DNA of 64,000 nucleotides from Leptonemataceae bacterium (GCA_965227295.1 OZ245742.1:5600001-5664000), one strand, 5' to 3'; counted from the stretch's first letter, positions 1,243 to 47,633 are shown. Notes: a model not told the origin generated them from the sequence alone. Program-made: numbers and translations.

Positions 1243-3279
1243 ATGCGTTTCGGTTTCGCGATTCTTTTCTGCGCGTTCACGGCCTGCGGCGCGCCGGAGT
1301 TCGGGGACATCGAGTCGGTGGCTTATCTAAGAGACGGTAACCGATCGTTAACGTTTGAAGAAGTCCGCGAGCTGGAATTTACGAAGTCGGAGACGCCTTC
1401 ACCGACGTTCGGATATACGGATGACGTGATCTGGCTGCGGGTGAAGCTGCGAGACGGACTGGAGATCGGAGACGATTATTATCTGAACATTGCCTATCCG
1501 CATCTGGACGACATTCGATTATTTCAGTGGGACCTCAGCAGATGGCAGGTCAAGAGCACGGGGGACCAGTTATCTTTTGCGACACGGGAAATCGACAATG
1601 CAAACTTTTATCTACGGCTGATTGCCCCTTCGAATAAGCCCATATATGTGCGTGTCGAAAGTAGCGGTCCGAAAATCGTGCCTCTATCACTTCAGTCCGG
1701 TAGTGAGATTCCCGGGCAGGCCATGCGACGCTCCATGATCCTTGGTGCGGTTTTCGGCCTGCTTGCCATCATTGCCCTGTACAATCTGACTCTCTATATT
1801 TCGGTGAGAGATCCGAATTTCCTTTACTACGCCCTCTACGTTTCCCTGCTAACGGGCGCCTTCTTTTGCTTCGAACGGTTTGATTACCAGTTTATCTGGC
1901 GGGAACCGTCCACGATTTCAAATAGATCTTTCGCGATACTCGGGACGGCCGCATACTTTTGGGCTACACGTTTCGCCCGCCGATATCTCGACACACAAAA
2001 CAATTCACCGCTATTTCATCACGTACTCGGTGGCCTTTCTTACGTTCACCTCGCAGGTATTGTCCTTTTTTTATTCTACGAAAACTACGGGCTCCTCGCG
2101 CGTACGGTGAACGCATTCATACTCATTACGCTGCTTGTGATTATTACCGTATCAGTTCTTCTGACCGTGCGCGGTTCACGATCGGCCCGCTTCTTCATAG
2201 TAGCCTGGCCGATATTTATTGCAGGCAGCATATTGGGACTTTTTCGCTTCGAAGGAAGTGTCCCGGACACCTTTTTCACTCAATACGGGGTCTATATCGG
2301 CGCGATCATCGAAGTCGTCCTCATCTCTTTCGGCCTGGGCGATCGCATCAACCAAATGCGTCTGCAAACCGAACGCGCCCAGCGTGAAAGCCTCGAACTT
2401 CAACAAACGCTAACTCAATCTTACGCGCGCTTTGTACCAGAACAACTGCTCACCAGACTCGGCAAATCCACCATCCTCGACGTCCGCCTCGGCGACGCCG
2501 TGGAACGCGAGATGACGATCCTGTTCTCCGACATCCGTTCCTTTACGGTAATCTCCGAAACCATGACACCGCGCGAGAACTTCGAGTTCATCAATTCATT
2601 TCTACAGAACACAGGCCCCGTTATCCGCGAACAGGGCGGCTACATAGACAAATACATCGGCGACAGCATCATGGCGCTCTTCCCGGAATCACCAGAGCAT
2701 GCCCTGCTGTCCGCCGTGCAAATGCGACGATTGCTGAGCGCTTACAATGTACGCCGCAAGCACAATGGCTTCCGCGAAATCCAGATCGGCATCGGTATTA
2801 ATACCGGGCCTGTTATGCTCGGCATCGTCGGGGAGGAACAACGCCTCGAAGGAACAGTAATTGCCGATGCGGTAAATCTCGCCGCGCGGCTGGAAGGCCT
2901 TTGCAAACGCTACGGCGCAACAATCCTCATAAGTGAACAGACTCTCTTTCGGCTCCCTGAACCCGAAAATTACCACTATCGCATCCTCGACTATGTTCGC
3001 GTCAAAGGCAAGTCAGACACTGTCACCGTCGTGGAAGTCTTCGACGGCGATCCTCCTGAACTCTTCGGGCAAAAGAACCAGTCTCGCGTTAGCTTCGAAC
3101 GTGCCGTAACGCTCTTCGGCACGGGAGACTTTACTTCCGCGCGCGCACGTTTCGAAGATGTCCTGCGCAATTCTCCCGACGACCCCGCCGCGGCAATCTA
3201 CGCCGCCCGCGCCGCCGAATACGAACGCCACGGACCGCCGCCGAACTGGCAGGGCATCACGGACCTGGACCAGAAATAG
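1243..3279 (+). CDS. 7TM-DISM sensor adenylate/guanylate cyclase (class III)
   Basis: Extracellular DISM-like domain (FGYTDDVIWLR), 7 TM segments, cyclase motifs ILFSDIRSFT, DKYIGDSIMA, GIGINTG, DAVNLAARLEG. Confidence 0.92.
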   Translation: MRFGFAILFCAFTACGAPEFGDIESVAYLRDGNRSLTFEEVRELEFTKSETPSPTFGYTDDVIWLRVKLRDGLEIGDDYYLNIAYPHLDDIRLFQWDLSRWQVKSTGDQLSFATREIDNANFYLRLIAPSNKPIYVRVESSGPKIVPLSLQSGSEIPGQAMRRSMILGAVFGLLAIIALYNLTLYISVRDPNFLYYALYVSLLTGAFFCFERFDYQFIWREPSTISNRSFAILGTAAYFWATRFARRYLDTQNNSPLFHHVLGGLSYVHLAGIVLFLFYENYGLLARTVNAFILITLLVIITVSVLLTVRGSRSARFFIVAWPIFIAGSILGLFRFEGSVPDTFFTQYGVYIGAIIEVVLISFGLGDRINQMRLQTERAQRESLELQQTLTQSYARFVPEQLLTRLGKSTILDVRLGDAVEREMTILFSDIRSFTVISETMTPRENFEFINSFLQNTGPVIREQGGYIDKYIGDSIMALFPESPEHALLSAVQMRRLLSAYNVRRKHNGFREIQIGIGINTGPVMLGIVGEEQRLEGTVIADAVNLAARLEGLCKRYGATILISEQTLFRLPEPENYHYRILDYVRVKGKSDTVTVVEVFDGDPPELFGQKNQSRVSFERAVTLFGTGDFTSARARFEDVLRNSPDDPAAAIYAARAAEYERHGPPPNWQGITDLDQK

Positions 3280-3453
3280 GGCCGCCGCCGAACTCGTGCA
3301 CAATCTTACGGAAACGCCCGGAAATCCTCCGCCCCACCCCGGGCGCGGCTGCCTTCATCGTTGACGCATGTCCCGGACGCGAATACTAAACTTCACTAAG
3401 TTTCTCCGCGCGCACATTACGTAACAATACTCACGGCGCGCCGCATTTTCTGC

Positions 3454-3894
3454 ATGCCGGACAAGACGCATCTCATCTTCCTCAGCTACGCCCGGGCGGA
3501 CGCGGAAAGCGCCGAACGCCTGCACGCGTTCTTCCTGAGCAATCGTTTCGCCGACAGGAACGTGCGGCCCTGGCTCGACAGGCACGATCTCTTACCCGGT
3601 GAACGCTGGGACCAGGCCATCCGCACGGCGCTCCAGGCCGCGGCGTTCGTCGTCATTATCGTCTCGCAGGCGTCCGTCGATAAACGCGGCTATTTTCGCA
3701 GAGAAGTGCGCGCGGCCCTGGATCGCGGCGATGAGTTCCTGGACCGGGACATCTTCCTGATTCCGGTACGCATCGACGATGTGCCGCTGCCGGACGACCT
3801 CGCTGACTTCCAGTGCGTCGACCTGCGTCGCGACGACTGGCAGAACCGCCTGACCGCCGCCGTCAGAGCCGGCCTGGATCGCCGTAACTTATAA
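3454..3894 (+). CDS. Stand-alone TIR-domain protein (TIR_2-like)
   Basis: IFLSYARAD, PWLDRHDLLPGERW, SVDKRGYFRRE (putative catalytic Glu), LIPVRIDDVPLP. Confidence 0.9.
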   Translation: MPDKTHLIFLSYARADAESAERLHAFFLSNRFADRNVRPWLDRHDLLPGERWDQAIRTALQAAAFVVIIVSQASVDKRGYFRREVRAALDRGDEFLDRDIFLIPVRIDDVPLPDDLADFQCVDLRRDDWQNRLTAAVRAGLDRRNL

Positions 3895-3906
3895 TGTTTT
3901 GCACCT

Positions 3907-6900
3907 ATGCCCGAGACTGCTGACAACCCGCGCGTGTATCTGTGTTATTCCCGGGAAGATTTTCCGGAAGTGGAACGCTGGTATCACGCCCTGGAATCCC
4001 AGGGATTTCAACCGTGGATGGAAGACCTCGACCTCGTTCCCGGCGAAGTTCGTAAGAGCGTCGTCGAGGACGCGGTGGCCACGGCGGACTTTTTTATCGT
4101 TTGCGTGAGTCGGCGCACTGGCGGCGAACGCGGACGGGTACAGCAAGAAATCAGCCAGGCCTTAGATACACTTCAATCATACTTAGAGAACGACATCTAC
4201 CTGATCCCGGCTTTGCTCGAAGAATGCGCCTTGCCCGAACGCCTGAAGGAGTTTCATCCGGTACGATTGTACCGTCCCGACGGCTTCGAGCGTTTGCTGC
4301 ATGCCTTGCGGACCGGGGTGGAACGGCGGAGGCGGGAACACCGGCAAGAACCGATGCTCGCGCCGCCTCCATCGAACGATCAAGATTCGGCCCCGCGCAT
4401 ACCGAGCGAAACCGATCTGTACCGGCTCCTCGGCCTGGCCTATCGCGGTTGGACCGAGGATCGTCCGGCAAGGACCGCGGCATGTATCCAGCAGGCGTTG
4501 TTGCTGCTCTTTCGTTTATGCTATCGCGATCACCACGGCGATGCGGCGGCGGCCTCGGTGGAAGGCGACGCCTTACTGGAATTCATTCGCACCCGCTTCG
4601 CGACGGAGGACCCGCGGTTACTGCGATTGGTGCAAAACATCGGCCGCGCGTGCCGGATGGCCGCCCACGATCTCGACGAAAACTCGGGCCGCAAACACGC
4701 GGGCAATCTTTTGACCGCGTTCACGGCGGCCTTCTTCTTCGTGCATCGCCGCATCCGCGGGCGTACGGACCCGGATCGCGAACAGCTCTTCCGTGCGTTC
4801 AGCCCGCCCGAGACGGACACTCCGGAAGACCACTTCGTTTTTCCGAAAGCTAAGTTTCATTTACCGACCGAGTCCCCGGATCGTTCCGGCGAGCCGGCGG
4901 AACGCCGAACCGTCGCCCTGCATCAGGCGGCCATCGACAATCCCGCCGCGCAGCAACTCAGTCCGCATCAGAAAGTACTCGTCAACGTCGCCTGCTTTCA
5001 GATGCGCAGCGGCCTGGAGATTCCGTTCATTCAAAGTGAGGTGCGCAACGAGGACGTGGAGATCGAATTTCTGACCGTACTCGCGAGTGTAACTGTCGTT
5101 GCTGCGAAGTTAGCGACTGCTCACACGGTCGTCTACATCGGCCCCGAACTTTCGGCCGATGCCTGGGGCCGCCGTTACCGGCTGACCACCAACGGCCGGG
5201 ATCAACTCGACGTCTTTGAAATCGCTCAGGAAGATCTTCCCGACGATCAATCCACGGCGCCGGAGAGCCGGGAGATCCTGCATCACGACATCGACGGCGA
5301 AACGTTTGCGAACTATCGTCACACGTGCAAAGAACGCACGGGTTTTTCCCAGAGCAACATCGTCCTGCTGAACGACGATCACGATCTGCTCCAGGCCCTG
5401 AGCTATCCCTTCGACGTCTGGCGTTTGTTCCTGCACCCGCGGCAACTTCAGGTTGTCGAACACCCGGCGCGTTTCCTGTTCGTGCAGGGCGGACCAGGCA
5501 CCGGTAAGACCGTGGTGCTCGCGCATCGTATGATGCGGATCGTAGAACGTCGAGAGCACGAGGGTGATGCGAACTTTAAGATTATCTTTCTATCATTTAC
5601 GGCTTCCGTTGCCGAAAACATGCGCCGCATGCTCGATAAACTCGGCGTGAACCTGGATCGCATCGTCATCGCGGACGTGCAGGCTTTCTTCGTGCGCAAG
5701 TCTCGCAAGGAACTCGTGCTCAACTGGGACCGCAGGCGCCGACAAATCATTCTGCACGAGGAGCTGCGATTTCCGGGGAAAAATGCGCCCGGGCAAGGAC
5801 GCCGCTACGTCGACTACATCGTTACGGACGTTTTCTTCGACGAGTTTCAGGACTTCCCCACGAAAGACGAGGACAACTACATCATCAAAATGATCCGCGC
5901 CGTAAAAGCGAGTCGCGCCACGCTCACCTGCACGTACGACGAACACCAGAGCATATATCACACCGAAACGGACTTAAAGTACTGGGACCGCCTGCTTGCG
6001 AACATCGAACACGTGCGTCTCGATTACTGTTATCGCATGGCGCGAGAAATATCCGAGATATCGAGCAAACATCGGCGCATCATGCTCGCTCACGCGCGGG
6101 ACATGCTCGCCCTCTCCGGCGGCGATCCGCCCGGCTACAGCGAACAACCGGCGCAACTCGCCTACGCCTTCACCGGCGGCACCGTGAGTCTCGTGCCCAC
6201 GGTGGGTCTGCGACAAATCACCGTGGCGAAGCGCATCGTAAGTACACTTCGCGAAGAGTTAGCGCGCGACACGGACAACCGCGCTCCGCGCCCCGTGCTG
6301 ACCGCGGGCACGTCGGACGTGGTGATCATTTTTTTTAATCCGGCCGATTACGGTCGCCAGTACGCCGGGAAGCTCAGCGAAGGCTGGTACGACAATCTCA
6401 AACGCGAGCTGAACGTGGAGATCTTCAATCCCTTCGCGGTCAAGGGCCTGGAGTTTCGTGCCGGGGTGGTCCTGTTTCCGCAGTACTGCTTCATGAAGTA
6501 CCGCCAGTACCTGCGCGACGGTGTGGATCTGCGCCGCCTCGACGAATTCTGCGCCGCGATCCTCGACTACCACGAACGGCACGTCCACGCGATTACGGAC
6601 GCGGGTTTTCGCAAGAGTACGGTGGATTACTTTCACGATTTGTTGTTTTTCTTAACTTCCCGGCCGTCACTCTCCCAGCGCCGCGAAGGCGAGGGTCTGC
6701 GCGAACTCACCGGGGTCTTACAGAACGCCGGCATCAGCGGCAACGATCTCGGCGTCGTCCACGAATTGTACCAACGCTATCTGTCGCATGAACTCAAGTC
6801 CTTGCTGGTGCGTTACGATCTTCCTTCCCGCGAATCGCCGACTGCCCCGCCGTTCGACCGGCCCATGTATCAAAAGCTGCGCGCACTCATCGCCGCGGAA

Positions 6901-7104
6901 ACCGCGAAAGTCCGCCGGCATACGCGGCTGCGACGTTCGAAACTGATCCACGGCGAGATCGATCGTTCGCTGCGGGACTTAAATGAATTTTATGTAGCAT
7001 TAACGCGCTTTCGCGAGCGAACGTTCCTGGTCTATGACCAAGAGTACGATCTGGCGCCCGTGATGCCCGGGGCCGAGGTGCTGGATGAGACGGAATTGCT
7101 GTAG
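3907..7104 (+). CDS. TIR-domain / UvrD-like superfamily 1 helicase fusion with probable HEPN(DUF4145)-like and RelE-like middle domains
   Basis: N-terminal TIR (VYLCYSRED, PWMEDLDLVPG, VQQE); SF1 motifs GGPGTGKT, FFDEFQD, DEHQSIY, LDYCYR, VKGLEF, YVALTR. Confidence 0.85.
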   Translation: MPETADNPRVYLCYSREDFPEVERWYHALESQGFQPWMEDLDLVPGEVRKSVVEDAVATADFFIVCVSRRTGGERGRVQQEISQALDTLQSYLENDIYLIPALLEECALPERLKEFHPVRLYRPDGFERLLHALRTGVERRRREHRQEPMLAPPPSNDQDSAPRIPSETDLYRLLGLAYRGWTEDRPARTAACIQQALLLLFRLCYRDHHGDAAAASVEGDALLEFIRTRFATEDPRLLRLVQNIGRACRMAAHDLDENSGRKHAGNLLTAFTAAFFFVHRRIRGRTDPDREQLFRAFSPPETDTPEDHFVFPKAKFHLPTESPDRSGEPAERRTVALHQAAIDNPAAQQLSPHQKVLVNVACFQMRSGLEIPFIQSEVRNEDVEIEFLTVLASVTVVAAKLATAHTVVYIGPELSADAWGRRYRLTTNGRDQLDVFEIAQEDLPDDQSTAPESREILHHDIDGETFANYRHTCKERTGFSQSNIVLLNDDHDLLQALSYPFDVWRLFLHPRQLQVVEHPARFLFVQGGPGTGKTVVLAHRMMRIVERREHEGDANFKIIFLSFTASVAENMRRMLDKLGVNLDRIVIADVQAFFVRKSRKELVLNWDRRRRQIILHEELRFPGKNAPGQGRRYVDYIVTDVFFDEFQDFPTKDEDNYIIKMIRAVKASRATLTCTYDEHQSIYHTETDLKYWDRLLANIEHVRLDYCYRMAREISEISSKHRRIMLAHARDMLALSGGDPPGYSEQPAQLAYAFTGGTVSLVPTVGLRQITVAKRIVSTLREELARDTDNRAPRPVLTAGTSDVVIIFFNPADYGRQYAGKLSEGWYDNLKRELNVEIFNPFAVKGLEFRAGVVLFPQYCFMKYRQYLRDGVDLRRLDEFCAAILDYHERHVHAITDAGFRKSTVDYFHDLLFFLTSRPSLSQRREGEGLRELTGVLQNAGISGNDLGVVHELYQRYLSHELKSLLVRYDLPSRESPTAPPFDRPMYQKLRALIAAETAKVRRHTRLRRSKLIHGEIDRSLRDLNEFYVALTRFRERTFLVYDQEYDLAPVMPGAEVLDETELL

Positions 7105-7258
7105 ATTGTCGACGGGCGCCGGCCTTCGTCGGTCAGAGCATAGACCGTCACCGCGGCGGCCCAGGATCTCAAGCGCAACGGCCAACTCTAAATTGGCATT
7201 TCCAATTTATTGCTTGTTTTTTCAAAGCAAGATATTATACCGGGCCTCCGGAGGAATC

Positions 7259-7762
7259 ATGCCAACATCCGAAACAACGACGACGCTTCTACAGGACAGC
7301 GAGGTCCTCTCCGCCCTGCCGGTGGAGCACCTGTGCGATTTCGACATCCGCTTTGAGCCGGTCCAACGCATCGACACCGCAGCGGGAACCAGGCTCAATT
7401 ACATCATTCGGGAGGGCATCGTGCGCGGGCCGCGCATCCAGGGTGAATTTCTCCCCGGCGGTGGGGACTGGCTCATCACCGGCACGGACGGAGTCTCACA
7501 CCTGGACGTACGCGCCACGCTGCGTACGAAGGACGACGCACTCATCTACCTCACAAATCGCGGCCGGGTCTCCATGTCCACGTCCATGCGCCGCCGCTAC
7601 TTAATGGGACAGCAACTGCCTTATTCCGCCATGTACGCGCGCTCGCATCCGCAATTCGAAACAGACGCCCCGGAATACGCTTTTCTGAACGCGGCGGTAT
7701 GCATCGCGTTCAACGAGGTCAGCCTGGACCGGGTGATCTATCGCATCTACATCGTGCAGTAG
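7259..7762 (+). CDS. DUF3237 family protein
   Basis: GPRIQGEFLPGGGDW, LDVRATLRTKDDALIY, PQFETDAPEYAFLN; GGAGG RBS before ATG 7259. Confidence 0.85.
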   Translation: MPTSETTTTLLQDSEVLSALPVEHLCDFDIRFEPVQRIDTAAGTRLNYIIREGIVRGPRIQGEFLPGGGDWLITGTDGVSHLDVRATLRTKDDALIYLTNRGRVSMSTSMRRRYLMGQQLPYSAMYARSHPQFETDAPEYAFLNAAVCIAFNEVSLDRVIYRIYIVQ

Positions 7763-7854
7763 GCCTATTCTCCATGGTGCATACCACACCTGAACATGAT
7801 GCAACGCTCCTGAAAAATACTGGCACCCTGTCGCATGTTCGCGGACAACAACAC

Positions 7855-9036
7855 ATGCAGGAAGTACTGCGACACGGCATTCTCTACGGCGGCATCTTTC
7901 TGTTCCTGGGCGGCTGGGGTCATCTCCTGCGCCCGGGCAAACTCATCACCAATCGCATGCTCGCTCTACTGAGCATCGCGGTAGCCGTCCAGTTTCTGTA
8001 CCTGTACTTCCTCATGCGGGAATGGCACTTCGAACCCGGCTACTGGAACTACGCTTACCTGCCGTTTGTTTTCGTCTGCGGCCCGGGCATGTACATCCTG
8101 TTTCGCGCCACGGTCGAAGACGGCTACCGACCGTCACGCCATGTATGGTTGTTCGCTCCCGCCGTGGTACTCGTCCCGTTTCTGCCGCTGAGCTACGACC
8201 TGGCCCCGCACTGGTACGAATCGGGACCCATCGACTACTATTTCGCCGGCGCGACCACGCCCCTCGACATCGTCACGCTCTTCGGATTCTACGCCAATCT
8301 TTTCTGTTACGTGGTGATCTTCGTGCACGCCGGCCCGGTCTTTCGCTGGCGCTCACTCTCCCAGGAACCGGCCGCGCGCATCTTGCTCGGTATCCTGGTC
8401 GGCAACTCCCTGCTCATGGGCGCGCTGGGCTGCGCTCATCTTCTGCGGCGCGCGGACGGCGTGATCTACGTGGCCTTCGGTACCTCGGTATTCGCGGCGG
8501 TAATCTCCGTGTTTTCTCAGAGCGCTCCGTACCTCTTTCAGGAACTGGGCATCGCCATCCGCAAGGCCTACAAGAACTCGCGCCTGGCCGGCGTGAACGT
8601 GGCGGCCCTGGAACAAGAACTGCGCCGCTTAATGGAAGAAGACAAACTCTTTCTGCACGAAGACTTGAGTCTGCAGGCTCTCGCCCACGAACTGGACGTA
8701 AAGCCCTACCAACTCTCCGAATTCTTAAACGCGCACCTCGAACAAAACTTCTCTCGTTTCGTGAACGGCTACCGCGTGGCAGAAGCCGCGCGCATGCTCC
8801 TCGAAGAAGAAGCCGCCAGCATCCTCTCGATCGCCTTTCGCGTGGGCTTCAATTCAAAGGCGACGTTTAACCAGGCCTTCAAAACCATCCACGGTCTATC
8901 GCCGCGCGAGTATCTCAAAAAAGAACGCGCTCACAAGAAGAATCGCCGACGGCGTACGAAGATCCAGGCCCTGGGCAAACGCGCCGCCCGCATGGCCGCG
9001 AAGGTCGTGCCCTCGAAACGCCGCAAAAAAGGCTGA
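7855..9036 (+). CDS. Membrane-anchored AraC family transcriptional regulator
   Basis: Multiple TM helices then C-terminal HTH (NFSRFVNGYRV, IAFRVGFNSKATFNQAFK); start chosen by alignment with the paralog at 10194. Confidence 0.88.
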   Translation: MQEVLRHGILYGGIFLFLGGWGHLLRPGKLITNRMLALLSIAVAVQFLYLYFLMREWHFEPGYWNYAYLPFVFVCGPGMYILFRATVEDGYRPSRHVWLFAPAVVLVPFLPLSYDLAPHWYESGPIDYYFAGATTPLDIVTLFGFYANLFCYVVIFVHAGPVFRWRSLSQEPAARILLGILVGNSLLMGALGCAHLLRRADGVIYVAFGTSVFAAVISVFSQSAPYLFQELGIAIRKAYKNSRLAGVNVAALEQELRRLMEEDKLFLHEDLSLQALAHELDVKPYQLSEFLNAHLEQNFSRFVNGYRVAEAARMLLEEEAASILSIAFRVGFNSKATFNQAFKTIHGLSPREYLKKERAHKKNRRRRTKIQALGKRAARMAAKVVPSKRRKKG

Positions 9037-10092
9037 GATCCGTACCGCGCGAAAACCGCAGCCCTGAGCTCCCTTTTCGTAAATCCCGCGAGCACGGCGG
9101 TGCACGACGTACCGGCCGGCAACGCGGGGCGATCGATCAGCCAGGCCGACATCGAAGCGGCCTTCGAAGCCGAAGACGACGGCAGTTTCACCTGGAATCC
9201 GGGCGTGGTCTTTCAGTCCGCGGACGGAACCACCATCACGGGCAACGTCTTTCAACCGAAGCATGTCGCGCCGGGCGAAACGCTGCCGGCGATCATCTTC
9301 GTAAATTCCTGGGCGGTCAACGAGTTCGAGTACATCGTACCCGCGGCGAAGTTTGCGAAGAAAGGTTACATCGTCTTCAGTTACAGTACGCGCGGCTTCG
9401 GTTTCTCCGGCGGACTCATCAACGTCGCCGGCCCCAAAGACATGCAGGATCTTTCCGCTGCCATCATATCTGAACCAGGGCACCCACGCTACGGCCGAGG
9501 CCGCGGGCATTCTGGGACTGCCTAACTTCATCTGGGACAACGCCAACGACTGGTTCGACTATCATCTCAAAGGCGTCGACACGGGCATCATGCAACGGCC
9601 GGCCGTAACCTTCGAAAAAAAGTTCGCCGACATCGGCGAGCGCGTGAGCTACGCCACCTGGCCGTCACCACAGGTTAGCGAGCGCACCTTTTACCTGAAA
9701 CCGCGCGGTCTGTTCAGCGGCGGCAAACTCCAGGACTCGCCCAACTCCAGCAGCCGTACGTCGCGCATCTACAGCGGTATCGATACGACCGCGAATACCG
9801 GTGTGCCGCTCATTTCGCCGATCCTGGAAGGTCATCTGAACGCGCCGGTGCTCACGCCGCTTTCCACGGTCAGCCGCAACCACGGCGTCGTCTACCAGTC
9901 CGATCTCCTGTGGAACGGCCTTAAGATGCGCGGAAAATCAGTTTACCGTGCACGGGTGGAATCGTCCCGGAAAGAGCTGCACCTGAACGTCTATCTCTAC
10001 GACGTGGACTGGTTCGGCACCGGCAAACTGATCACCCACGGCACCGGCACGATTCCAGCCAGCAGGGCACCCTCAAAATCGAAGTTGAATGA
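9037..10092 (+). pseudogene. Degraded CocE/NonD (peptidase S15-like) hydrolase
   Basis: Frame 1 gives PAIIFVNSW...YSTRGFGFSGG...KDMQDLSAAI; a frameshift near 9466 leads to YLNQGTHATAE...YLYDVDWFGTGKLITHG. No GxSxG nucleophile segment, no good start, second break near 10055. Confidence 0.75.
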
Positions 10093-10193
10093 TCTTACGA
10101 ACGTCCGGGCCTCCCCGCGCGGGAAGCCCGGGAAAACGGCGCAAACGCCGCTAAAAAAACTGGCGCCGTGTCGCATGTCCTCCGACCATCGCA

Positions 10194-11282
10194 TTGATGT
10201 TCGAGGTCGCGCGGCACGGCATTCTTTTCGGCTCCATCTTTCTCTTAATGGCGGGCGGCGGACACCTGCTCCGCCCCGGCAAACTCACAACCAATCGCAT
10301 CCTGACCCTGCTGAGCTGGGACGCTGCGGCCATGCTCCTGCTCATGTACCTGCAAATGAGCGGCGTGCGCTTCGAACCCGGTTTCTGGGACTACCTGTAC
10401 GTGCCGTTGATTTACGTCGGCGGACCGGCCATGTACGTCGTCTTCCGCGCCATGGTGGAAATCGACTACGACCTGCGCCGGGACCTCGGCGTATTCGTGC
10501 TCCCCGTGCTGTTGGTTCCGGCACTGCCTCTGAGCTATGTGATCGCCCCGCACTGGTACGAAACCGGCCCGGTGGAGTACTATCTCGAAGGCAGCGTGAG
10601 TCCGCCGGACATCGCCATCCTTGCCGGACTGATCCTGAACGCGTTCTACTACGTGGCCGCGTATTTCCGCACGCGGGAGATCTTCAGCCTGGAATCGTTG
10701 CGCCGCGATCCGGCGGCGCGCATTCTGCTGAGCATCCTGGTGGGCAGCCTCGTCTTCAACACGGCCATGGCCTACCTGCACGCCACGCGGAACACCGAAG
10801 GCATTGTCGTCACGGCCTTCAGTATTTCCGTCTTCGCGGCTATCACCTTTCTGACGACGCAGACCACGCCGCATCTGTTTCAGGAACTGGGCATCGCCCT
10901 GCGCAAGGCCTACAAGACCACCCGCCTCAGCGGTGTGGACGTGGACAACCTGGAGAAAGATCTGCGTCGGTTAATGGAAGATGACAAACTCTTTCTGAAC
11001 GAAGACTTGAGCGTGAACGACCTGGCCGCGGAGCTGGACATAAAGCCGTACCAGCTTTCGGAGTTCCTGAACGCGCACCTGGAACAAAACTTCGCGCGCT
11101 ACGTAAACGGTTACCGCGTAGAAGAAGCGGCCCGCCTGTTGCTGGAAGATGAGGCCGCATCCATTCTTTCCGTGGCCTTTCGGGTGGGCTTCAACTCCAA
11201 GGCCACGTTCAACCAGGCCTTCAAGGCCGTGAAGGGCCAGTCGCCGCGCGAGTTTCTGAAACAAGAACGCGCCGAATCATGA
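10194..11282 (+). CDS. Membrane-anchored AraC family regulator (paralog of 7855-9036)
   Basis: Collinear with the first copy; near-identical KPYQLSEFLNAHLEQNF and FRVGFNSKATFNQAFK. Confidence 0.88.
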   Translation: MMFEVARHGILFGSIFLLMAGGGHLLRPGKLTTNRILTLLSWDAAAMLLLMYLQMSGVRFEPGFWDYLYVPLIYVGGPAMYVVFRAMVEIDYDLRRDLGVFVLPVLLVPALPLSYVIAPHWYETGPVEYYLEGSVSPPDIAILAGLILNAFYYVAAYFRTREIFSLESLRRDPAARILLSILVGSLVFNTAMAYLHATRNTEGIVVTAFSISVFAAITFLTTQTTPHLFQELGIALRKAYKTTRLSGVDVDNLEKDLRRLMEDDKLFLNEDLSVNDLAAELDIKPYQLSEFLNAHLEQNFARYVNGYRVEEAARLLLEDEAASILSVAFRVGFNSKATFNQAFKAVKGQSPREFLKQERAES

Positions 11283-11311
11283 GGCAGGAGACAGTGTGAC
11301 GATGGCGGTGC

Positions 11312-36301: not shown

Positions 36302-37339
36302 ATGAACAAACTCGAACGCATCGCCACGCTCTATCTTACGTTTCTCAGCAACCCCGGCGGCCTTTCGTTTGCAAAAATCCGTGAACACCTGCCCGGCGCC
36401 TACGGCAGCGGCAACGACGATGACCGCGAGGCCGCCCGGCGCAAGTTCGAACGGGACAAAGACGAACTCCGCGGCCTCGGCCTGGAACTGCGTTACTACG
36501 CCGTGAACGATACGTTGCCCGACGGCAGCCGTTCCAGGGAAGCCGTCTACGTGGCCGCGGAAGAGATGCAACAGCTTCCGGAGCTGAACCTCACCGAAGA
36601 CGAAGTACGCATGCTGGCCTCTCTGTTGCTCGGCGCAATTTCCGATCCCGACGCACAGCGGTCGCGCCGGCGCGAGCTGCTGCGTTCGGCCGCGTTCAAG
36701 TTATTGTATGGTTATCCGGCCCTGGCCCAGTCCGTTGCCGAAGCTCCGCCTGCAAACGACGCCGACATTTCCGAAGATGCCCAGGACAACACGGACCGCC
36801 TGGCACGAATCCACGAGGCCCTCTCCCGGCGACGGTTGCTTACGATCGAATACACCGATAAGACCGGCCGCACGGAGAGCCGGAACGTCGCGGGCCGCGG
36901 CCTCATCTCGCATCGCGGTCGCTGGTCTCTCGTTGCGTACTGCCGGCGCGCCCGGGACATTCGCATGTTCTACGTCGATCGCATCGCGTCGCTGAACATG
37001 AGCGATGAAGGCTACGCCCCCGATCCTTCGTTCGACATTCAACGATACTCGCTGCATCCCCTCGCGATCTACGTCGAACCCGCGCGCCCGGTCCGCCTGG
37101 AGATCGCGGAAGATCGCGAAGAGGCGTTCCTGGATTTCTTGAACGGCGTGCCGGAGTCGCTGCACGTCCGCCGGGAAGACGAGCGGATGTACTTCCAGAC
37201 CACGAATCCCACGGCGCTCTTCTCCTGGATGCTGCGCCATCCCGGCGTCGTTACGAAACTCGGTCCGCCGGAACTACGAGAACGCCTGGCCGCGCACCGG
37301 GAAACGATCCGGCGGCGCTACGCCGCTCTGCAAACATAA
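36302..37339 (+). CDS. WYL-domain transcriptional regulator, PafB-like
   Basis: RRKFERDKDELRGLG N-terminal signature; WSLVAYCRRARDIRMFYVDRI WYL domain. Confidence 0.88.
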   Translation: MNKLERIATLYLTFLSNPGGLSFAKIREHLPGAYGSGNDDDREAARRKFERDKDELRGLGLELRYYAVNDTLPDGSRSREAVYVAAEEMQQLPELNLTEDEVRMLASLLLGAISDPDAQRSRRRELLRSAAFKLLYGYPALAQSVAEAPPANDADISEDAQDNTDRLARIHEALSRRRLLTIEYTDKTGRTESRNVAGRGLISHRGRWSLVAYCRRARDIRMFYVDRIASLNMSDEGYAPDPSFDIQRYSLHPLAIYVEPARPVRLEIAEDREEAFLDFLNGVPESLHVRREDERMYFQTTNPTALFSWMLRHPGVVTKLGPPELRERLAAHRETIRRRYAALQT

Positions 37340-37353
37340 TCTCACTGTAATTT

Positions 37354-38352
37354 ATGCCTGAGAACAAAGACGTCAGCAAAGCCGGCCGGGACCTGCGCAA
37401 GATCTTTTCGCTGGTACCGCTCATCCATCGCAACCAGGGTATCTCCCTGGAACGCCTGCGTGAGCTGTCGGGCTACGCCGATCGCAAGAGTCTGCGCGCG
37501 GCCCTTGAACGTTTGATGATGTTCGGGGTCCCGCCGTTTTCGCCGTCGGACTTTATTACCGTCTACATCAACGAAGAAGACTGCGTGTTCCTGGATTTTC
37601 CCCTGGGACTGGAACGTCCCCTGGCGTTGACACCGGGAGAGTGGTCCGCCGTCCAGGAGGTGCTCACCGAAGAACTGCAATTCCGCCGTGCCGGCGATCC
37701 CGCCGACGACCGGCTGCGCGAGTTGCTCGCCCGGGTCGCCGTGATTCCGGTGGAGATGGACCCGGCGGATATCTTTCGCAGCAAGCGCGCGTTAGTCGAA
37801 GAGGCCATGGCCGACTCGCTGCAACTGGAGTTTCGCTATCGTACCTTAAGCTCGCGCGAACCGGAGATCCGTCGCCTGGATCCCTGGGCCCTGTTTCAGC
37901 ACAACGGGGCCAACTATCTCATCGGCTACTGCCATACCCGAACGGCGCCGCGTTTCTTTCACCTGGAACGCATGGATCAGATCGAACTCCTGGACGCCCC
38001 GCAATCGCAGCCGCCGCCGGATAATCTACGTGAACTCATGCAGCGTTCGCCCATCTTTCAGAGCGAGCCGGTCGGTTTCTCGGTGGAGCTGGCCTTCGCC
38101 CCGGGCATGCGCGCCGCCCTGGAGCGGGAGTTTAAAATTTTTAACATAATGCCGCTAAATGTTAGCGAAAGCGCGGATTCCGACGAGGAGTTCGCCGGCT
38201 GGCTGCGCGCGACGTGCAAGGTTCCGGAGAGCCTGTGGTTCCGCGCAAGCCTGCGCGGCCTGGGCGCGAACGTGGTGATCCTGTCACCGGAACATCTGCG
38301 GGATTCGTTTTTACAAGAGCTGGATGAGTTTGAGATGCCGGGGGAGTTGTGA
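37354..38352 (+). CDS. WYL-domain transcriptional regulator, PafC-like
   Basis: LMMFGVPPFSPSDFI, RPLALTPGE, RRLDPW, YLIGYCH..PRFFHLERM, VILSPEHLR. Confidence 0.88.
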   Translation: MPENKDVSKAGRDLRKIFSLVPLIHRNQGISLERLRELSGYADRKSLRAALERLMMFGVPPFSPSDFITVYINEEDCVFLDFPLGLERPLALTPGEWSAVQEVLTEELQFRRAGDPADDRLRELLARVAVIPVEMDPADIFRSKRALVEEAMADSLQLEFRYRTLSSREPEIRRLDPWALFQHNGANYLIGYCHTRTAPRFFHLERMDQIELLDAPQSQPPPDNLRELMQRSPIFQSEPVGFSVELAFAPGMRAALEREFKIFNIMPLNVSESADSDEEFAGWLRATCKVPESLWFRASLRGLGANVVILSPEHLRDSFLQELDEFEMPGEL

Positions 38353-44330: not shown

Positions 44331-47300
44331 TCATTCTACGTCGATTACGACGATGGCGATGTCGTCACCGATGCTCGCGGTACCGCCGCACCATTCAATG
44401 ACGTCCGCGAGCAAACGATCCGTGAAGTCCGCGGCGGAGAGGTTCGCGTGTTCGAGCATCTTTTCCTGGATGCGCTCTTCACCGAACTCTTCGAAGTTCG
44501 CAGCGGCGGCCTCGGTCACCCCGTCGGTGTACAGAACGATGCGATCCCCCGGCGCCAGGTCCAATTCCTGGACGGCAAAACGCGGGCCGGGCAGAATCCC
44601 CAGGGGCACGCCCTTCGGACGCACGACCTCGATGGTCTTCGAAGACGCGCGACGCAAGAACATGGGCGGGTGACCGGCGTTCGCGGTCCAGAGCTTGCGC
44701 AGCTTCGTATCGATCTTAACGTGACAGGCCGTAACAAAACTGCTGCCGGCCTGGCCGGAGAACGCGCGATTCAAATTCGCCAGAAACTCCCCGGGGTCGG
44801 GCTGGCGCTGACGCTCGAAGGCGAACGCCAGGTGCACGGCGGATACCAGCAAGGCCGCGGGGATGCCGTGGCCGGCGACGTCCGCGACCAGGACTTCGAA
44901 CAGCGTACCGTCCGTGTGAAAGTCATAGTAATCCCCGCCGACGCTTTCCATGGCCTGGTACAGGGCCCCCACTTTAAGACCCGGTACGATCGGCGCCGAA
45001 CGCGGAATCAATGACTGCTGGATTTGTCGGGCCTTTTCCAGGTCGCCTTCGATGGCGGCGAGATGTGACTGCGTTTGGGCCGCACGTTTGAGTTCCAGCA
45101 TGTTCGCCACACGCGCGCTGAGCTCCCGCGCATCGAAGGGTTTCACCAGATAATCATTCGCCCCGCTCTCGAGGCCCGTCACGATATCGATCACGCGGTT
45201 CTTCGCCGTAAGCATGATGATGGGCAGCTCCGACGGAGACGACTTCTCGCGAATGAATCGGCAGACCTCGTAACCGGACAGCCCCGGCATCATCACGTCG
45301 AGTAAGATGACGTCGAGTTCGTGTTGCTCGACTTTCTCAAGAGCGGCACGGCCGCTGTCCGCCTCGATTACCTGTAGCGACAGCATGCGCAGTTGATTGC
45401 GCAACACACGACGGTTGATGGAGTCGTCGTCCACCACCAACACTGAGTACGGTGTACCGTTGGACGCCGGTATCTCCACGGGAGCATCATTCTCGACGGT
45501 GCCCGAATCAATGAGATCCTCGATGAGATGCGCCCGCCGCTGCACCTCGGTCCAGGCCGGGGCTTCGGCTTCGCCGTGACTCACGGGCAACGTAAAATAA
45601 ACGGTGGTCCCGCGGCCGGGCGACGACTTCATTCGAATCTCGCCGCCGTGCAGTTCCACCAGCTGTTTGCTGATGGACAGGCCGAGGCCGGTACCCCCGT
45701 ACTCCCTGGAGATGGCGCCGTCGCCCTGGGTAAACGAATCAAAGACCAGGGCCTGGCGATCTTCGGGGATGCCGATGCCGGTATCTTCCACACTGATTTC
45801 TACAAAGCCCGGGGCGGTCCCATCATCCTGCGCATCCACCACGCGGGCACTCACCGTCACCGCCCCCGCTTTCGTAAACTTAATCGCGTTGCCGATTAAG
45901 TTATGAAGCACTTGTTCCAGGCGATCCTCGTCGGCGTCCACCGGCGGCACCGGCTCGTCGTCGTGACGCAGTTCGATGGGACGATCGCCGATGATATGCT
46001 GCGAGAGCGCCAGCACCACGCCGATGACCGCATGCACGTCCACCGCCTTGCGGCGCAGGATCAGATCGTCGTGACGAATGCGCGAGAAGTCGAGCAGGTC
46101 GTTGACTAGATTCGAAAGCCGCCGACCGCTGGAGGCGATCAACTGTAGATTCTCCGTGGCCTCGTGCTTTAACTCACCGGCCGCGCCCTGTATCAACGAA
46201 TCGGCGAGGCCGATGATTCCGTTCAACGGCGTCCGCAGTTCGTGCGAGGTGTTCGCCAGGAACTGGTCTTTGAGTTGGTCGAGGCGCGAGAGGCGCTCGT
46301 TCTGTCGGGTGATTTCCTGATTCAGACGATCCTGATCCGCCGACAATCGCTCCACTTCATTGTGTGCGTTTACGAAGTGATCGATCTGCACCAGCGTAAG
46401 GCCGCCGAGCATCGTGGGAATGGCGAGGGGTGCAAGGAACATCCACGGCAGTTGAAAGACCGCGACGATGACGTCGTTCAAAGTCATGGCGCTCACCAGG
46501 GCAACGACGAGAATCAACAACACGCTCACCGTTTCGACGCGTTCGCGGCGCGCGTTGATGACCCAGATCATGTGCAGGGCCTGGAAACCCACGATGCCCG
46601 GCAGAAATCCCACGCGCACGGCGGCGAAACTTTCGCGATCCATGGCGGTGCAGTGCGCGAGCACCGCCACGAGGACGAAGCCGAGAGCGAAACGCGTCGG
46701 CCAGACGGAGTGTCGTTCCAGAAAGTCGCGAAAGAACAGCGTCGTAAAACCGTAGAAGATGTACAGCGCGCTCCAGTCGATCTTCTGAAACCACAGCGCG
46801 TTAAAGAACGGCATGTCCGAAAGAAAGGGCAGACCCCAGGCGAAGTTGTTGATGCTGTAAATAAAAAAGAAGACCAGCGCCAGGGAGTAGTGCAGATAAA
46901 AGACGACCCGACGTCGCTTCAGGTACATCAGCAGGAAGATGAACGCCGCGGCCAGCGCGAACAGCGCCGTGATCATGTGCAGCGTCATGTGCTGCATGGT
47001 CGCGAGGCCGGCCAGGTGTTCCATCGCCCGGCGCGGACCGATGAACGGCACGTCTTCCAGGCCCGGCGAGGCGTAGCCGGGATAGATGACGAGCAACAGT
47101 TCGTTGCCCGCATCCTTAAGCAAGGGCCGCGACGCCGGATACACCCGCGGAATGTTCCAGGGGTCCGTGGGCTCCGGCGGAAAACGCCCGGTCTCCCCGA
47201 TGAGGCGGCCGTTGAGATACGTACGGTCGCAGGCGTTGACCCGGCCCAGGTAGAACGAAAGAATCGGCTCCGTCAGAAATTCGGGCGGCAGGTCAAATTT

Positions 47301-47633
47301 TGTACGCAGAACAACGTAGGTCGAACGATCGGGAAGCAGCGGCCCGAGGGCGGCATAGGGTTGCGGCAGCGACTCGAACGCCAATCCCCGAATGTCGGCC
47401 AGGTTGTCGGGCTCCCGGGTGAGAGCGTACTCCCACGGTCCGTCCAGCGGCCGTCCCTCCTCGGGAGCCGGCTCACTGCAACCGGACAGGAAGAGAATCA
47501 CCAGGACAAGCACCCCGGCGTGGAGACGGTCCCAGGAAAACAGTGCTACCGCGTGTCTCCGGTCTGTGGGGATGAGGTCGATGCCGAATCGGAGCATGAA
47601 CTGGCCGCTGCTGACGAAACCGGAATCTGCCAA
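44331..47633 (-). CDS. Hybrid sensor: extracellular jelly-roll + 7TM + histidine kinase + receiver + PP2C/SpoIIE phosphatase
   Basis: ANTSHELRTPLNG, NLIGNAIKFT, DTGIG, GGTGLGL, LDVMMPG, VGGDYYD, ADVAGHG, LYTDG, DDI; start uncertain. Confidence 0.92.
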   Translation of the reverse strand: MADSGFVSSGQFMLRFGIDLIPTDRRHAVALFSWDRLHAGVLVLVILFLSGCSEPAPEEGRPLDGPWEYALTREPDNLADIRGLAFESLPQPYAALGPLLPDRSTYVVLRTKFDLPPEFLTEPILSFYLGRVNACDRTYLNGRLIGETGRFPPEPTDPWNIPRVYPASRPLLKDAGNELLLVIYPGYASPGLEDVPFIGPRRAMEHLAGLATMQHMTLHMITALFALAAAFIFLLMYLKRRRVVFYLHYSLALVFFFIYSINNFAWGLPFLSDMPFFNALWFQKIDWSALYIFYGFTTLFFRDFLERHSVWPTRFALGFVLVAVLAHCTAMDRESFAAVRVGFLPGIVGFQALHMIWVINARRERVETVSVLLILVVALVSAMTLNDVIVAVFQLPWMFLAPLAIPTMLGGLTLVQIDHFVNAHNEVERLSADQDRLNQEITRQNERLSRLDQLKDQFLANTSHELRTPLNGIIGLADSLIQGAAGELKHEATENLQLIASSGRRLSNLVNDLLDFSRIRHDDLILRRKAVDVHAVIGVVLALSQHIIGDRPIELRHDDEPVPPVDADEDRLEQVLHNLIGNAIKFTKAGAVTVSARVVDAQDDGTAPGFVEISVEDTGIGIPEDRQALVFDSFTQGDGAISREYGGTGLGLSISKQLVELHGGEIRMKSSPGRGTTVYFTLPVSHGEAEAPAWTEVQRRAHLIEDLIDSGTVENDAPVEIPASNGTPYSVLVVDDDSINRRVLRNQLRMLSLQVIEADSGRAALEKVEQHELDVILLDVMMPGLSGYEVCRFIREKSSPSELPIIMLTAKNRVIDIVTGLESGANDYLVKPFDARELSARVANMLELKRAAQTQSHLAAIEGDLEKARQIQQSLIPRSAPIVPGLKVGALYQAMESVGGDYYDFHTDGTLFEVLVADVAGHGIPAALLVSAVHLAFAFERQRQPDPGEFLANLNRAFSGQAGSSFVTACHVKIDTKLRKLWTANAGHPPMFLRRASSKTIEVVRPKGVPLGILPGPRFAVQELDLAPGDRIVLYTDGVTEAAAANFEEFGEERIQEKMLEHANLSAADFTDRLLADVIEWCGGTASIGDDIAIVVIDVE

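Follow-up and report, generated by a model that had tools for sequence, protein, structure and literature searches.

Two adjacent genes of a Leptonemataceae bacterium encode a small stand-alone TIR protein (the solo TIR, P0001) and a large protein (P0002) in which a TIR domain is fused to helical, RelE-fold and SF1 helicase parts. Both lie in the window, that is, the whole stretch of 64,000 nucleotides that was analysed. As our best explanation, to which we give slightly less than even chances, the pair may constitute a helicase-triggered two-gene TIR NADase module of the conflict type (anti-phage or anti-plasmid, acting by abortive infection). The original prediction had proposed an undescribed anti-phage system. 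Its domain parsing, the pairing of the two genes, the lack of a matching model and the kinship to effector TIRs stood up to the analysis, but the expected island context and a repeated association of the genes did not.

Gene pair and TIR domains

The solo TIR gene (146 aa) occupies positions 3454–3894 on the plus strand. By the ORF coordinates, a 12-bp spacer (3895–3906, plus strand) separates it from the gene for P0002 (1065 aa; 3907–7104, plus strand), whose TIR, helical, RelE-fold and SF1 helicase parts were delineated from the ORF call, Pfam, a family alignment and a structural model. The two co-oriented reading frames 12 bp apart, as originally described, are real. An operon is implied by this short spacer, which is also 12 bp long at one related locus (L001) and 38 bp at another (L002). 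The 174-bp intergenic region upstream of the pair (3280–3453, plus strand), between the cyclase stop at 3279 and the ATG at 3454, is the presumed promoter region. A scan of positions 3100–7800 for the sigma-70 consensus gave 0 promoter-like sites, so the promoter of the pair was not located, and the accompanying terminator search gave five sites against a shuffle mean of 4.6, i.e. no excess. The GC content is 0.598 for the cassette and 0.593 for the window. Pfam identifies a thiolase, a 7TMR-DISM adenylate cyclase, DUF3237 and AraC proteins as neighbours, in agreement with the predicted metabolic and signalling surroundings.

Pfam TIR_2 (PF13676; cut-off 28 bits) matches residues 8–131 of the solo TIR (E 6.7e-24, 85.2 bits) and the N-terminal TIR domain of P0002 (aa 8–145; 3928–4341, plus strand; E 2.9e-18, 66.9 bits), and the two domains are 34% identical over 134 residues (E 4e-23). 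Homologous N-terminal TIR domains with a putative catalytic Glu, one in GYFRRE and the other in GRVQQE, had been predicted and were found. In a profile search against PDB sequences, Glu84 of the solo TIR (codon 3703–3705, plus strand) and Glu81 of the fused TIR (codon 4147–4149, plus strand) align with E77 of the SPARTA TIR-APAZ protein (8ifk, 8u7b, 8z92), the number of the latter being counted off the printed alignment. The mutation E77A abolishes the NADase activity of SPARTA, according to PMC9097488. The putative catalytic Glu is invariant in 4/4 solo TIRs and present in five of the six TIR-bearing full-length family members, the sixth, P0034, having Gln instead. In the Leptospirales-type clade it is retained in the solo and fused TIRs alike. 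The Gln of P0034 counts against reading the family as an NADase module. The absence of an aromatic residue at the fourth position ahead of the Glu (a WxxxE pattern) could suggest that the fused TIR is impaired, but we dropped this idea because the SPARTA TIR has no such residue either.

Among solved TIRs, the PDB profile search placed TIR-STING (E 1.9e-8) and SPARTA TIR-APAZ (E ~1e-6) nearest. By these sequence comparisons the fused TIR falls within the TIR_2 branch that also contains the NAD-hydrolysing effector TIRs of SPARTA and TIR-STING. Six of 13 scanned TIR relatives carry EAD7, EAD8, nSTAND1, CHAT, FGE-sulfatase or DUF4062 domains; such domains are typical of NTP-dependent conflict systems, as described in PMC7159879. 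We constructed a FastTree phylogeny of 45 TIR domains, including 35 outside TIRs taken from 145 TIR-only representatives. All four solo TIRs group together (support 0.984), as do all six fused TIRs (0.98), and the 35 outside TIRs fall between the two groups. On this phylogeny the solo and fused TIRs are two old lineages kept together, the small protein being a second, phylogenetically distinct TIR co-inherited with the large one. A predicted complex of the fused TIR (aa 1–150) with the solo TIR scored 0.27 (mark 0.32), which speaks neither for nor against binding.

Helicase motor and middle region of the large protein

The pre-helicase segment (LNDDHDL..ALSYP.D.WRLFLHP.Q) and the UvrD-like SF1 motor were assigned to positions 5362–7056 (plus strand) by Pfam, Foldseek and alignment. 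Every motif quoted in the original prediction of a full UvrD/Rep set was found: GGPGTGKT at residues 528–535, with the Walker A Lys534 encoded at 5506–5508 (plus strand), DEFQD at 645–649, DEHQSIY at 678–684, YCYR at 707–710, KGLEF at 846–850 and YVALTR at 1029–1034. Motifs Q, I, Ia, II, III, IV, V and VI are present and invariant in 7/7 aligned family members. Pfam matches on the motor are UvrD-helicase (E 3e-12) and AAA_19 (E 2e-8), and Foldseek places UvrD, PcrA and Rep on top (E down to 2.7e-7). By these motifs and matches, the SF1 ATPase/translocase core of the large protein is intact. The C-terminal domain UvrD_C or UvrD_C_2 was sought with Pfam, and no UvrD_C match was obtained in the seven members. 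The full-length AF2 model (pLDDT 60.6, pTM 0.33), of low confidence at the accessory insertions and the C-terminal helicase region, was used solely to place domain boundaries and to match the motor to UvrD.

A closely related architecture is that of a family of helicases of about 700 aa with a RelE-like N-domain and a UvrD helicase, of which 27 members were aligned (e.g. P0192, P0027 and P0206). Some of its members are named RelE by JGI, and the family has no name in PADLOC or NCBIfam either. The hhalign alignment with P0002 runs continuously from the RelE-like N-domain through L.DD.DL..W.(V/L)FLHP.Q to motif V, the whole alignment having a probability of 99.9 and an E-value of 4e-32. In contrast to P0002, the ~700-aa proteins have no TIR, helical domain or insertion between motifs V and VI, and they have Pfam UvrD_C matches, residues R60, R66 and H84 and a full insertion of 1B size, which is much shorter in P0002. 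Motif spacing reveals that motifs V and VI of P0002 are separated by a family-specific insertion of ~160 aa (6487–6960, plus strand), predicted to be helical, whereas the same gap in the ~700-aa relatives is about 40 residues.

The region between the TIR and the motor consists of two domains in an AF2 model of aa 160–445 (pLDDT 83, pTM 0.82). Neither Pfam nor, with the region as a profile, PDB sequences gave anything relevant at E<=10, and ESM Atlas gave no usable match to aa 160–500. The first domain (aa ~167–285; 4405–4761, plus strand) has six helices in the model and a conserved HDLDE..RK..GNL patch, and is possibly DUF4145/HEPN-like. The original term "HEPN-like" is favoured by a language-model lead only, DUF4145 clusters having come second and third in an ESM Atlas search (score 0.89), but is unsupported by Pfam (no HEPN or DUF4145 match at E<=10), PDB sequences and the top 50 Foldseek matches. 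The HEPN RNase motif Rx4-6H is not conserved across the seven aligned members; it is complete (R247-x6-H254) in the window protein alone, the His occurring in 6/7 members and the Arg in 1/7.

The second domain (aa ~337–440; 4915–5226, plus strand) probably has a RelE/ParE-type alpha/beta fold by Foldseek and hhalign. Its top Foldseek matches in the PDB are mostly RelE, YafQ, YoeB, HigB and BrnT toxins, with TM-scores on the target of 0.53–0.71 and probabilities of at most 0.97, but with E-values of 0.18–1 and none <=0.001. Residues R60, R66 and H84, near-invariant in the ~700-aa family, correspond in the hhalign alignment to T390, T396 and E414 of P0002, and the only polar residues of the domain invariant in the seven members are H339, W420 and T428. 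Hence "RelE-like" has support at the fold and profile levels, but the putative RNase residues are gone, and the domain is probably catalytically dead.

Distribution and genomic context

Two large protein searches, in collections of billions, returned only six other proteins that match P0002 beyond the TIR; the family is very rare. In P0035 the helical, RelE-fold and helicase parts occur with no TIR, which marks the TIR as a removable module. A search started from P0035 gave no closer kin of this protein. The solo TIR and helicase genes are paired in all three loci with visible context (the window, L001 and L002), and a second TIR ORF was seen at none of 19 other TIR loci. The solo-TIR orthologues, located directly upstream of the helicase gene, are 52% (L001) and 51% (L002) identical to that of the window. 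A further solo-TIR relative, P0182 (81% identical), was the only protein found by a word-index search with the solo TIR; this search missed the L001 and L002 orthologues and therefore says little about the frequency of solo TIRs.

Between L001 and L002, the solo TIRs are 89% and the large proteins 77% identical, and the dN/dS ratios of the two genes (0.08 and 0.10) indicate purifying selection. Between the window and L001, identity is highest in the motor and TIR (59–67%) and lowest in the helical domain, the RelE-fold domain and the V–VI insertion (38–43%, with 43% for the insertion). The divergence of the cassette (47–52%) and its dN/dS are like those of flanking housekeeping genes. Downstream of all three loci, genes for GT2 (74% identity), GT9 (51%) and PurK (53%) follow in the same order; a 175-aa ORF (68% identity) among the common downstream genes was seen in L002 only. 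Since the loci are syntenic and share these genes, they represent one vertical lineage and a single inherited event, and the conserved gene order identifies the cassette as a stable, vertically inherited resident of a core region, not mobile cargo. The co-occurrence of the two genes in other genomes is thus confirmed as a pair in 3/3 loci, but it reflects one inherited event and no repeated association.

Around the cassette, Pfam recognised no genes of defence systems, integrases, transposases or phages, either in the 64 kb of the window or up to 10 kb away in L001 and L002. The suggested enrichment in defence islands was therefore not observed (0/3 loci with defence or mobile-element neighbours by Pfam). 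Family members were found neither in 72,556 plasmids (0 at >=80% coverage) nor in 50,697 phages. The vertical lineage, the lack of defence or mobile neighbours and the housekeeping-like divergence and dN/dS weaken the defence reading. The window-like GC content and the absence from the plasmid and phage collections also count against it.

Neither PADLOC 2.0 (2023) nor NCBIfam 20.0 (2026) contains a full-length model for the large protein, in line with the expectation that P0002 would give no full-system PADLOC call. We found no TIR–UvrD system or TIR–helicase architecture described in the literature, apart from one table line of 2013: Table 1 of PMC3710099 catalogues fusions of DUF4145/HEPN with "UvrD helicase" and with "TIR and ATPase". 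Because of this line, the domain combination cannot be called entirely new. The statement that the pair is no named system stands insofar as no model or described architecture matches it, but has to be qualified by the related fusions in that table. The DUF4145 (HEPN) fusions catalogued by Anantharaman et al. 2013 are a possible parallel for the helical domain with its DUF4145 lead; the differences are that no DUF4145 HMM matches here and that Rx4-6H is not conserved.

Known systems and alternative explanations

The predicted module would resemble SPARTA in combining a nucleic-acid-recognising partner with a TIR NADase active on oligomerisation; the SPARTA TIR-APAZ protein (E ~1e-6) also ranks with the nearest TIRs of solved structure, and its catalytic Glu aligns. 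It differs in having an SF1 helicase as the would-be sensor and a free-standing second TIR. Pfam found no Argonaute or APAZ match in P0001, P0002 or the scanned neighbour ORFs, and the PADLOC Aga_TIR models cover the TIR part only. The UvrD-like SF1 motor is shared with Gabija GajB, PADLOC RTasHel and NERD+UvrD proteins. The PADLOC GajB and RTasHel models match the Walker A end of P0002 (E ~1e-10 to 1e-11), and a GajB structure is among the Foldseek matches (8sm3_B, E 7e-4). However, the GajB and RTasHel matches span only ~85 residues (~509–595 for GajB), GajB has no N-terminal TIR, helical and RelE-fold modules or V–VI insertion, and Pfam detected no GajA (OLD/TOPRIM; ATPase–TOPRIM) among the scanned neighbouring ORFs. 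NTP-dependent conflict systems (Kaur et al. 2020, PMC7159879) likewise combine an NTPase with an N-terminal effector and place the same domain on two proteins, and the same TIR_2 branch is elsewhere fused to EAD7, EAD8, nSTAND1, CHAT and FGE-sulfatase. Their NTPase cores in that paper are instead STAND, MoxR-vWA and GTPases; the term "UvrD" does not occur in it, and SF1 helicases appear there only as PIN-linked effectors.

We suggest that the motor and the faster-evolving helical, RelE-fold and V–VI insertion modules would recognise an abnormal nucleic-acid or nucleoprotein substrate. Once bound to it, the molecules would cluster so that their TIRs meet and form composite active sites, as in other oligomerisation-activated TIRs, and the resulting hydrolysis of NAD+ would stop the growth of the infected cell. 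The solo TIR could be an amplifier that joins or extends the TIR assembly, or it could keep the fused TIR capped until activation, and the evidence fits both.

A lineage-specific housekeeping or stress helicase, acting for example on stalled transcription, translation or replication complexes, could explain many of the same features, with the TIRs as homotypic scaffolds or a regulated NAD-linked signal and no anti-phage role. The conserved chromosomal neighbourhood in three genomes, the housekeeping-like divergence and dN/dS, the lack of defence or mobile neighbours (Pfam, three loci), the absence of the family from the plasmid and phage collections and the loss of the TIR Glu in P0034 all agree with it, as does the RelE-fold and helicase unit, common to the broad chromosomal ~700-aa family, which has no assigned role. 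We nevertheless consider it rather unlikely: a core function is hardly expected to leave just six other proteins in collections of billions, neither TIR has lost the catalytic Glu in the Leptospirales-type clade, and the TIR subfamily is elsewhere embedded in conflict-system architectures. If true, bacterial TIRs that look catalytic would here serve an unusual, non-immune purpose.

Two further readings concern the relation between the TIRs. In plants, the paired TIR receptors RPS4/RRS1 provide a precedent in which one TIR restrains the other in a heterodimer until a cue. A toxin/antitoxin-like pair, in which one TIR would be a dangerous constitutive NADase blocked by the other through a TIR–TIR heterodimer until the helicase releases it on cue, fits the tight linkage with a small first gene, the distinct, co-inherited TIR lineages and the higher conservation of the solo TIR (89% vs 77% between L001 and L002). 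Such a pair appears improbable to us, as the heterodimer is putative only, the context is unlike that of a mobile addiction module and, with the Glu kept in both TIRs, neither is an obvious dead regulator. Still less credible is a Thoeris-like arrangement, in which a cyclic ADPR-type signal produced by the solo TIR would switch on the large protein, the effector. A small TIR protein encoded beside a larger, effector-like one recalls the ThsB/ThsA layout, and there are weak ThsB matches (ThsB_TIR 18.4 bits, below the cut-off of 21.2; PADLOC ThsB E 9e-5). However, NCBIfam Thoeris type III ThcB4 reaches 24 bits against a cut-off of 220, no SIR2, SLOG, Macro or ThsA-type effector was found in P0002 or its neighbours, and Pfam, PADLOC and NCBIfam revealed no known signal-sensing domain (SLOG, Macro, SAVED, STING or CARF) in P0002. 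Moreover, the large protein has its own TIR, and the nearest solved TIRs are NAD-depleting effector TIRs and not ThsB.

Known triggers of TIR NADases are, among others, Argonaute, STING, SAVED, STAND and retron reverse transcriptases. If the pair is an active defence module, the SF1 helicase would be added to these triggers, and the pair would offer a tractable bacterial model of two different TIR proteins that cooperate or restrain each other. It would also show that modules of this kind can lie away from defence islands and so escape discovery pipelines that rely on islands. In a more specific version, which we put forward tentatively and regard as unlikely on present evidence, an SF1 translocase would read a nucleic-acid cue and control a hetero-oligomeric NADase of two TIR lineages, one carried by the motor and the other free-standing, fixed as a core-genome pair in a Leptospirales-like lineage and not as mobile cargo of an island. 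Such a helicase-driven TIR immune switch would be the first example of its kind and a bacterial counterpart of paired TIR receptors.

The gene pair and its chromosomal neighbourhood

The cassette comprises two genes on the plus strand, one encoding a solo TIR protein of 146 aa (P0001, 3454–3894) and the other a TIR-helicase fusion of 1065 aa (P0002, 3907–7104). The two co-oriented genes 12 bp apart described in the original prediction were confirmed, and all motifs that it quoted were found in the two proteins. Its description of the surroundings as metabolic and signalling genes also holds. According to Pfam, a thiolase and a 7TMR-DISM adenylate cyclase lie upstream of the cassette, and DUF3237, AraC regulators, YceI, glycosyltransferases and PurK lie downstream, with glycine-cleavage genes, ThrRS, PdxJ and MetH farther in the same direction. 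The genes around the cassette are ordinary chromosome; GC content is 0.598 in the cassette and 0.593 on average in the window.

The next ORF (7085–7762, 225 aa as listed) matches DUF3237 only from residue 80, and an AT-rich stretch is located just upstream of position 7259. Judging from the sequence, its true start is probably the ATG at 7259 (MPTSETTT...), which leaves a gap of 154 bp after the helicase gene and hence places the DUF3237 gene outside the cassette. This gene is missing from L001 and L002, the two other loci with a full-length cassette. The AraC-family genes at 7699–9036 and ~10272–11294 are paralogues with 58.7% mutual identity. The second overlaps a longer ORF (9353–10984) with only a weak PepX_C match, so gene calls are ambiguous across 9.3–11.3 kb.

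A 7TMR-DISM receptor gene adjoins the cassette in all three genomes (1243–3279 in the window, 13763–16936 in L001, 13855–17034 in L002). It encodes a cyclase upstream of the cassette in the window, and a sigma-54 activator downstream on the opposite strand in L001 and L002; the common 7TM part shows 27–28% identity. This recurrence probably reflects family expansion rather than linkage. Elsewhere in the window, adjacent genes for WYL-domain regulators (36302–38352; HTH_PafC, WYL, WCX) have the appearance of a PafBC-type pair, and the minus strand at 44331–47633 encodes a hybrid histidine kinase of 1100 aa with a receiver and a SpoIIE/PP2C phosphatase domain.

Domain architecture and TIR lineages

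Pfam TIR_2 matches the N-termini of both proteins well over its cut-off (E = 6.7e-24 for P0001 and 2.9e-18 for P0002), and the two TIR domains are 34% identical over 134 aligned residues (E = 4e-23). The solved structures nearest to a profile built from solo and fused TIRs are the metazoan TIR-STING fusion (E = 1.9e-8) and several SPARTA TIR-APAZ chains (E about 1e-6). Glu77 of TIR-APAZ, numbered by counting along the printed alignment, stands opposite E84 of the solo TIR and E81 of the fusion; according to Koopal et al. (PMC9097488), the E77A substitution abolishes SPARTA NADase activity. The putative catalytic Glu is present in all four solo TIRs and in five of the six TIR-bearing full-length fusions, the exception being the distant family member P0034 with Gln in its place.

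A FastTree phylogeny of 45 TIR domains sampled 4 solo TIRs, 6 fused ones and 35 of 145 TIR-only representatives. Solo and fused TIRs each fall into a group of their own (support 0.984 and 0.98, respectively), and the outside TIRs are placed between the two groups. By this topology the pair represents two distinct old lineages retained together and is no recent tandem duplicate. Domains of the EAD7, EAD8, nSTAND1, CHAT, FGE-sulfatase or DUF4062 types were found in 6 of 13 outside TIR proteins scanned; such domains make up the vocabulary of the NTP-dependent conflict systems treated by Kaur et al. (PMC7159879). Another protein, P0036 (1778 aa), has an unusual layout of three TIR_2 domains, a weak Swt1-like HEPN match, a receiver, a LuxR-type HTH and two S1 RNA-binding domains.

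Beyond the TIR, Pfam recognizes only the N-terminal half of a UvrD-type helicase in P0002. All seven family members aligned share the helicase motifs GGPGTGKT, DEFQDFP, D..Q.IY, YCYR, KGLEF and FYVA.TRFR without change; the Walker A Lys of P0002 is K534. The AlphaFold2 model of the full-length protein is mediocre (pLDDT 60.6, pTM 0.33), yet among PDB structures it still resembles UvrD, PcrA and Rep most closely (E-values down to 2.7e-7). Residues 160–445 modelled alone give a confident structure (pLDDT 83, pTM 0.82), in which a six-helix domain packs on an alpha/beta domain. The Foldseek hits of the latter are mostly RelE, YafQ, YoeB, HigB and BrnT toxins (TM on target 0.53–0.71, none at E<=0.001). 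Independent support for a RelE fold comes from A6, an alignment of 27 UvrD-like helicases about 700 aa long; JGI names some of them 'RelE'. The profile-profile alignment of P0002 with A6 (probability 99.9, E = 4e-32) continues without a break from the A6 N-terminal domain to motif V and includes an L.DD.DL..W..FLHP.Q segment common to both. Where A6 has near-invariant R60, R66 and H84, P0002 has T390, T396 and E414. Any RNase activity of this domain has probably been lost in the P0002 family.

The helicases of A6 (e.g. P0192, P0027 and P0206) form a broad family whose RelE-like N-terminal domain keeps the near-invariant Arg, Arg and His, together with a conserved W.(V/L)FLHP.Q segment. Only generic UvrD models of PADLOC and NCBIfam match them, and the role of the family appears to be undescribed.

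The helical domain, residues 167–285, received no assignment from Pfam, the PDB-sequence search or Foldseek. A language-model search ranked DUF4145 clusters second and third (score 0.89, rated by the tool as a lead only), and the Rx4-6H motif occurs in one of seven family members. Thus, of the two labels originally attached to the middle of the protein, 'RelE-like' has reasonable fold-level support from Foldseek and the A6 alignment, and 'HEPN-like' goes no further than a lead. The P0002 family also has a helical insertion of its own, ~160 aa long, which lies between motifs V and VI. Between the window and L001, identity is highest in the TIR and motor (59–67%) and lowest in the helical and RelE-fold domains and the V–VI insertion (38–43%).

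Distribution, inheritance and selection

The family is rare. Among 5.8 billion clusters, a word-indexed search returned four full-length relatives (47–48% identity) and one fragment. Exhaustive phmmer against 1.84 billion representatives gave 11,555 matches; among the best 150, which are dominated by TIR matches and below which weaker helicase-only relatives may rank, four extend beyond the TIR (P0002 itself, P0009, P0034 and P0035). The TIR is absent from P0035 (910 aa), which consists of the helical domain, the RelE fold and the helicase; this marks the TIR as a modular addition. Further members of the family are P0007, P0009 and P0034, with P0182 as a relative of the solo TIR. In 185,579 species genomes, two of 21 confirmed loci are full-length, L001 ('bacterium') and L002 ('Leptospirales bacterium'), and the other 19 are TIR-only. 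The family was found in none of 72,556 plasmids at >=80% coverage and in none of 50,697 phages.

The solo TIR ORF precedes the fusion gene by 12 bp in L001 and 38 bp in L002. Two TIR ORFs, detected by the TIR HMM, occur at all three family loci that the count covers (window, L001 and L002) and at none of 19 further TIR loci, among them short contigs. Co-occurrence of the two genes in other genomes is thus borne out, but the three loci share their downstream gene order and are not independent: GT2 (74% identity), GT9 (51%), PurK (53%) and a 175-aa ORF (68%, orthologue in L002 only) follow in the same order in the window and L001 and/or L002.

Cassette identity across the loci is 47–52%. Between L001 and L002, the solo TIR has a dN/dS of 0.08 and the fusion one of 0.10; the two flanking genes give 0.10 and 0.15. 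These values are approximate since dS is close to saturation. As for a defence-island setting, Pfam gave no sign of one at any of the three loci, with no defence-type or mobile-element domains in 31 flanking ORFs of L001 and L002 or across the window. Given this synteny, divergence, selection and neighbourhood, the pair has long resided in a core region, where it is inherited vertically and maintained by selection; it lacks the signature of islands or mobility that typifies defence systems. Such maintenance speaks for a function of the pair and for a link between its genes.

Relation to known systems and possible function

No PADLOC 2.0.0 model spans P0002 past the TIR or about 85 helicase residues, in agreement with the expected absence of a full-system call, and no NCBIfam 20.0 model comes near its cut-off. 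The cassette belongs to none of Gabija, Thoeris and SPARTA, as a defining partner or domain of each is missing. A full-text literature search for TIR fusions with UvrD or helicases, covering main texts, found no description of this architecture, and a term look-up in a 2025 preprint devoted to the systematic discovery of TIR systems gave zero occurrences of 'helicase'.

We tentatively favour a helicase-coupled TIR NADase module, given that the SF1 motor is intact, that both TIRs are of the effector type and keep the catalytic Glu, that the operonic pairing is conserved and that both genes are under purifying selection. The motor and the variable modules would recognize a foreign or aberrant nucleic-acid substrate, P0002 molecules would then cluster, and the fused and solo TIRs could build an active NADase, so that NAD+ drops and growth stops; the solo TIR may act in this assembly as an amplifier or a restraint. 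A lineage-specific housekeeping or stress helicase with TIRs as scaffolds is a less probable explanation of the same pair, and we consider a toxin/antitoxin-like pair of TIRs rather improbable. Thoeris-like signalling is very unlikely, disfavoured by the finding of no known signal-sensing domain in P0002.

A helicase-coupled TIR NADase module would be of an already known kind, an NTPase sensor with a TIR effector. The closest precedent, a likeness by description, stands in a table of Anantharaman et al. 2013 (PMC3710099), one line of which lists DUF4145/HEPN fused to 'UvrD helicase' and to 'TIR and ATPase'; the 'TIR and ATPase' protein cited there is from Thiorhodococcus drewsii. What appears to be new in the cassette is the pairing of two TIRs and its location in a stable core genome.
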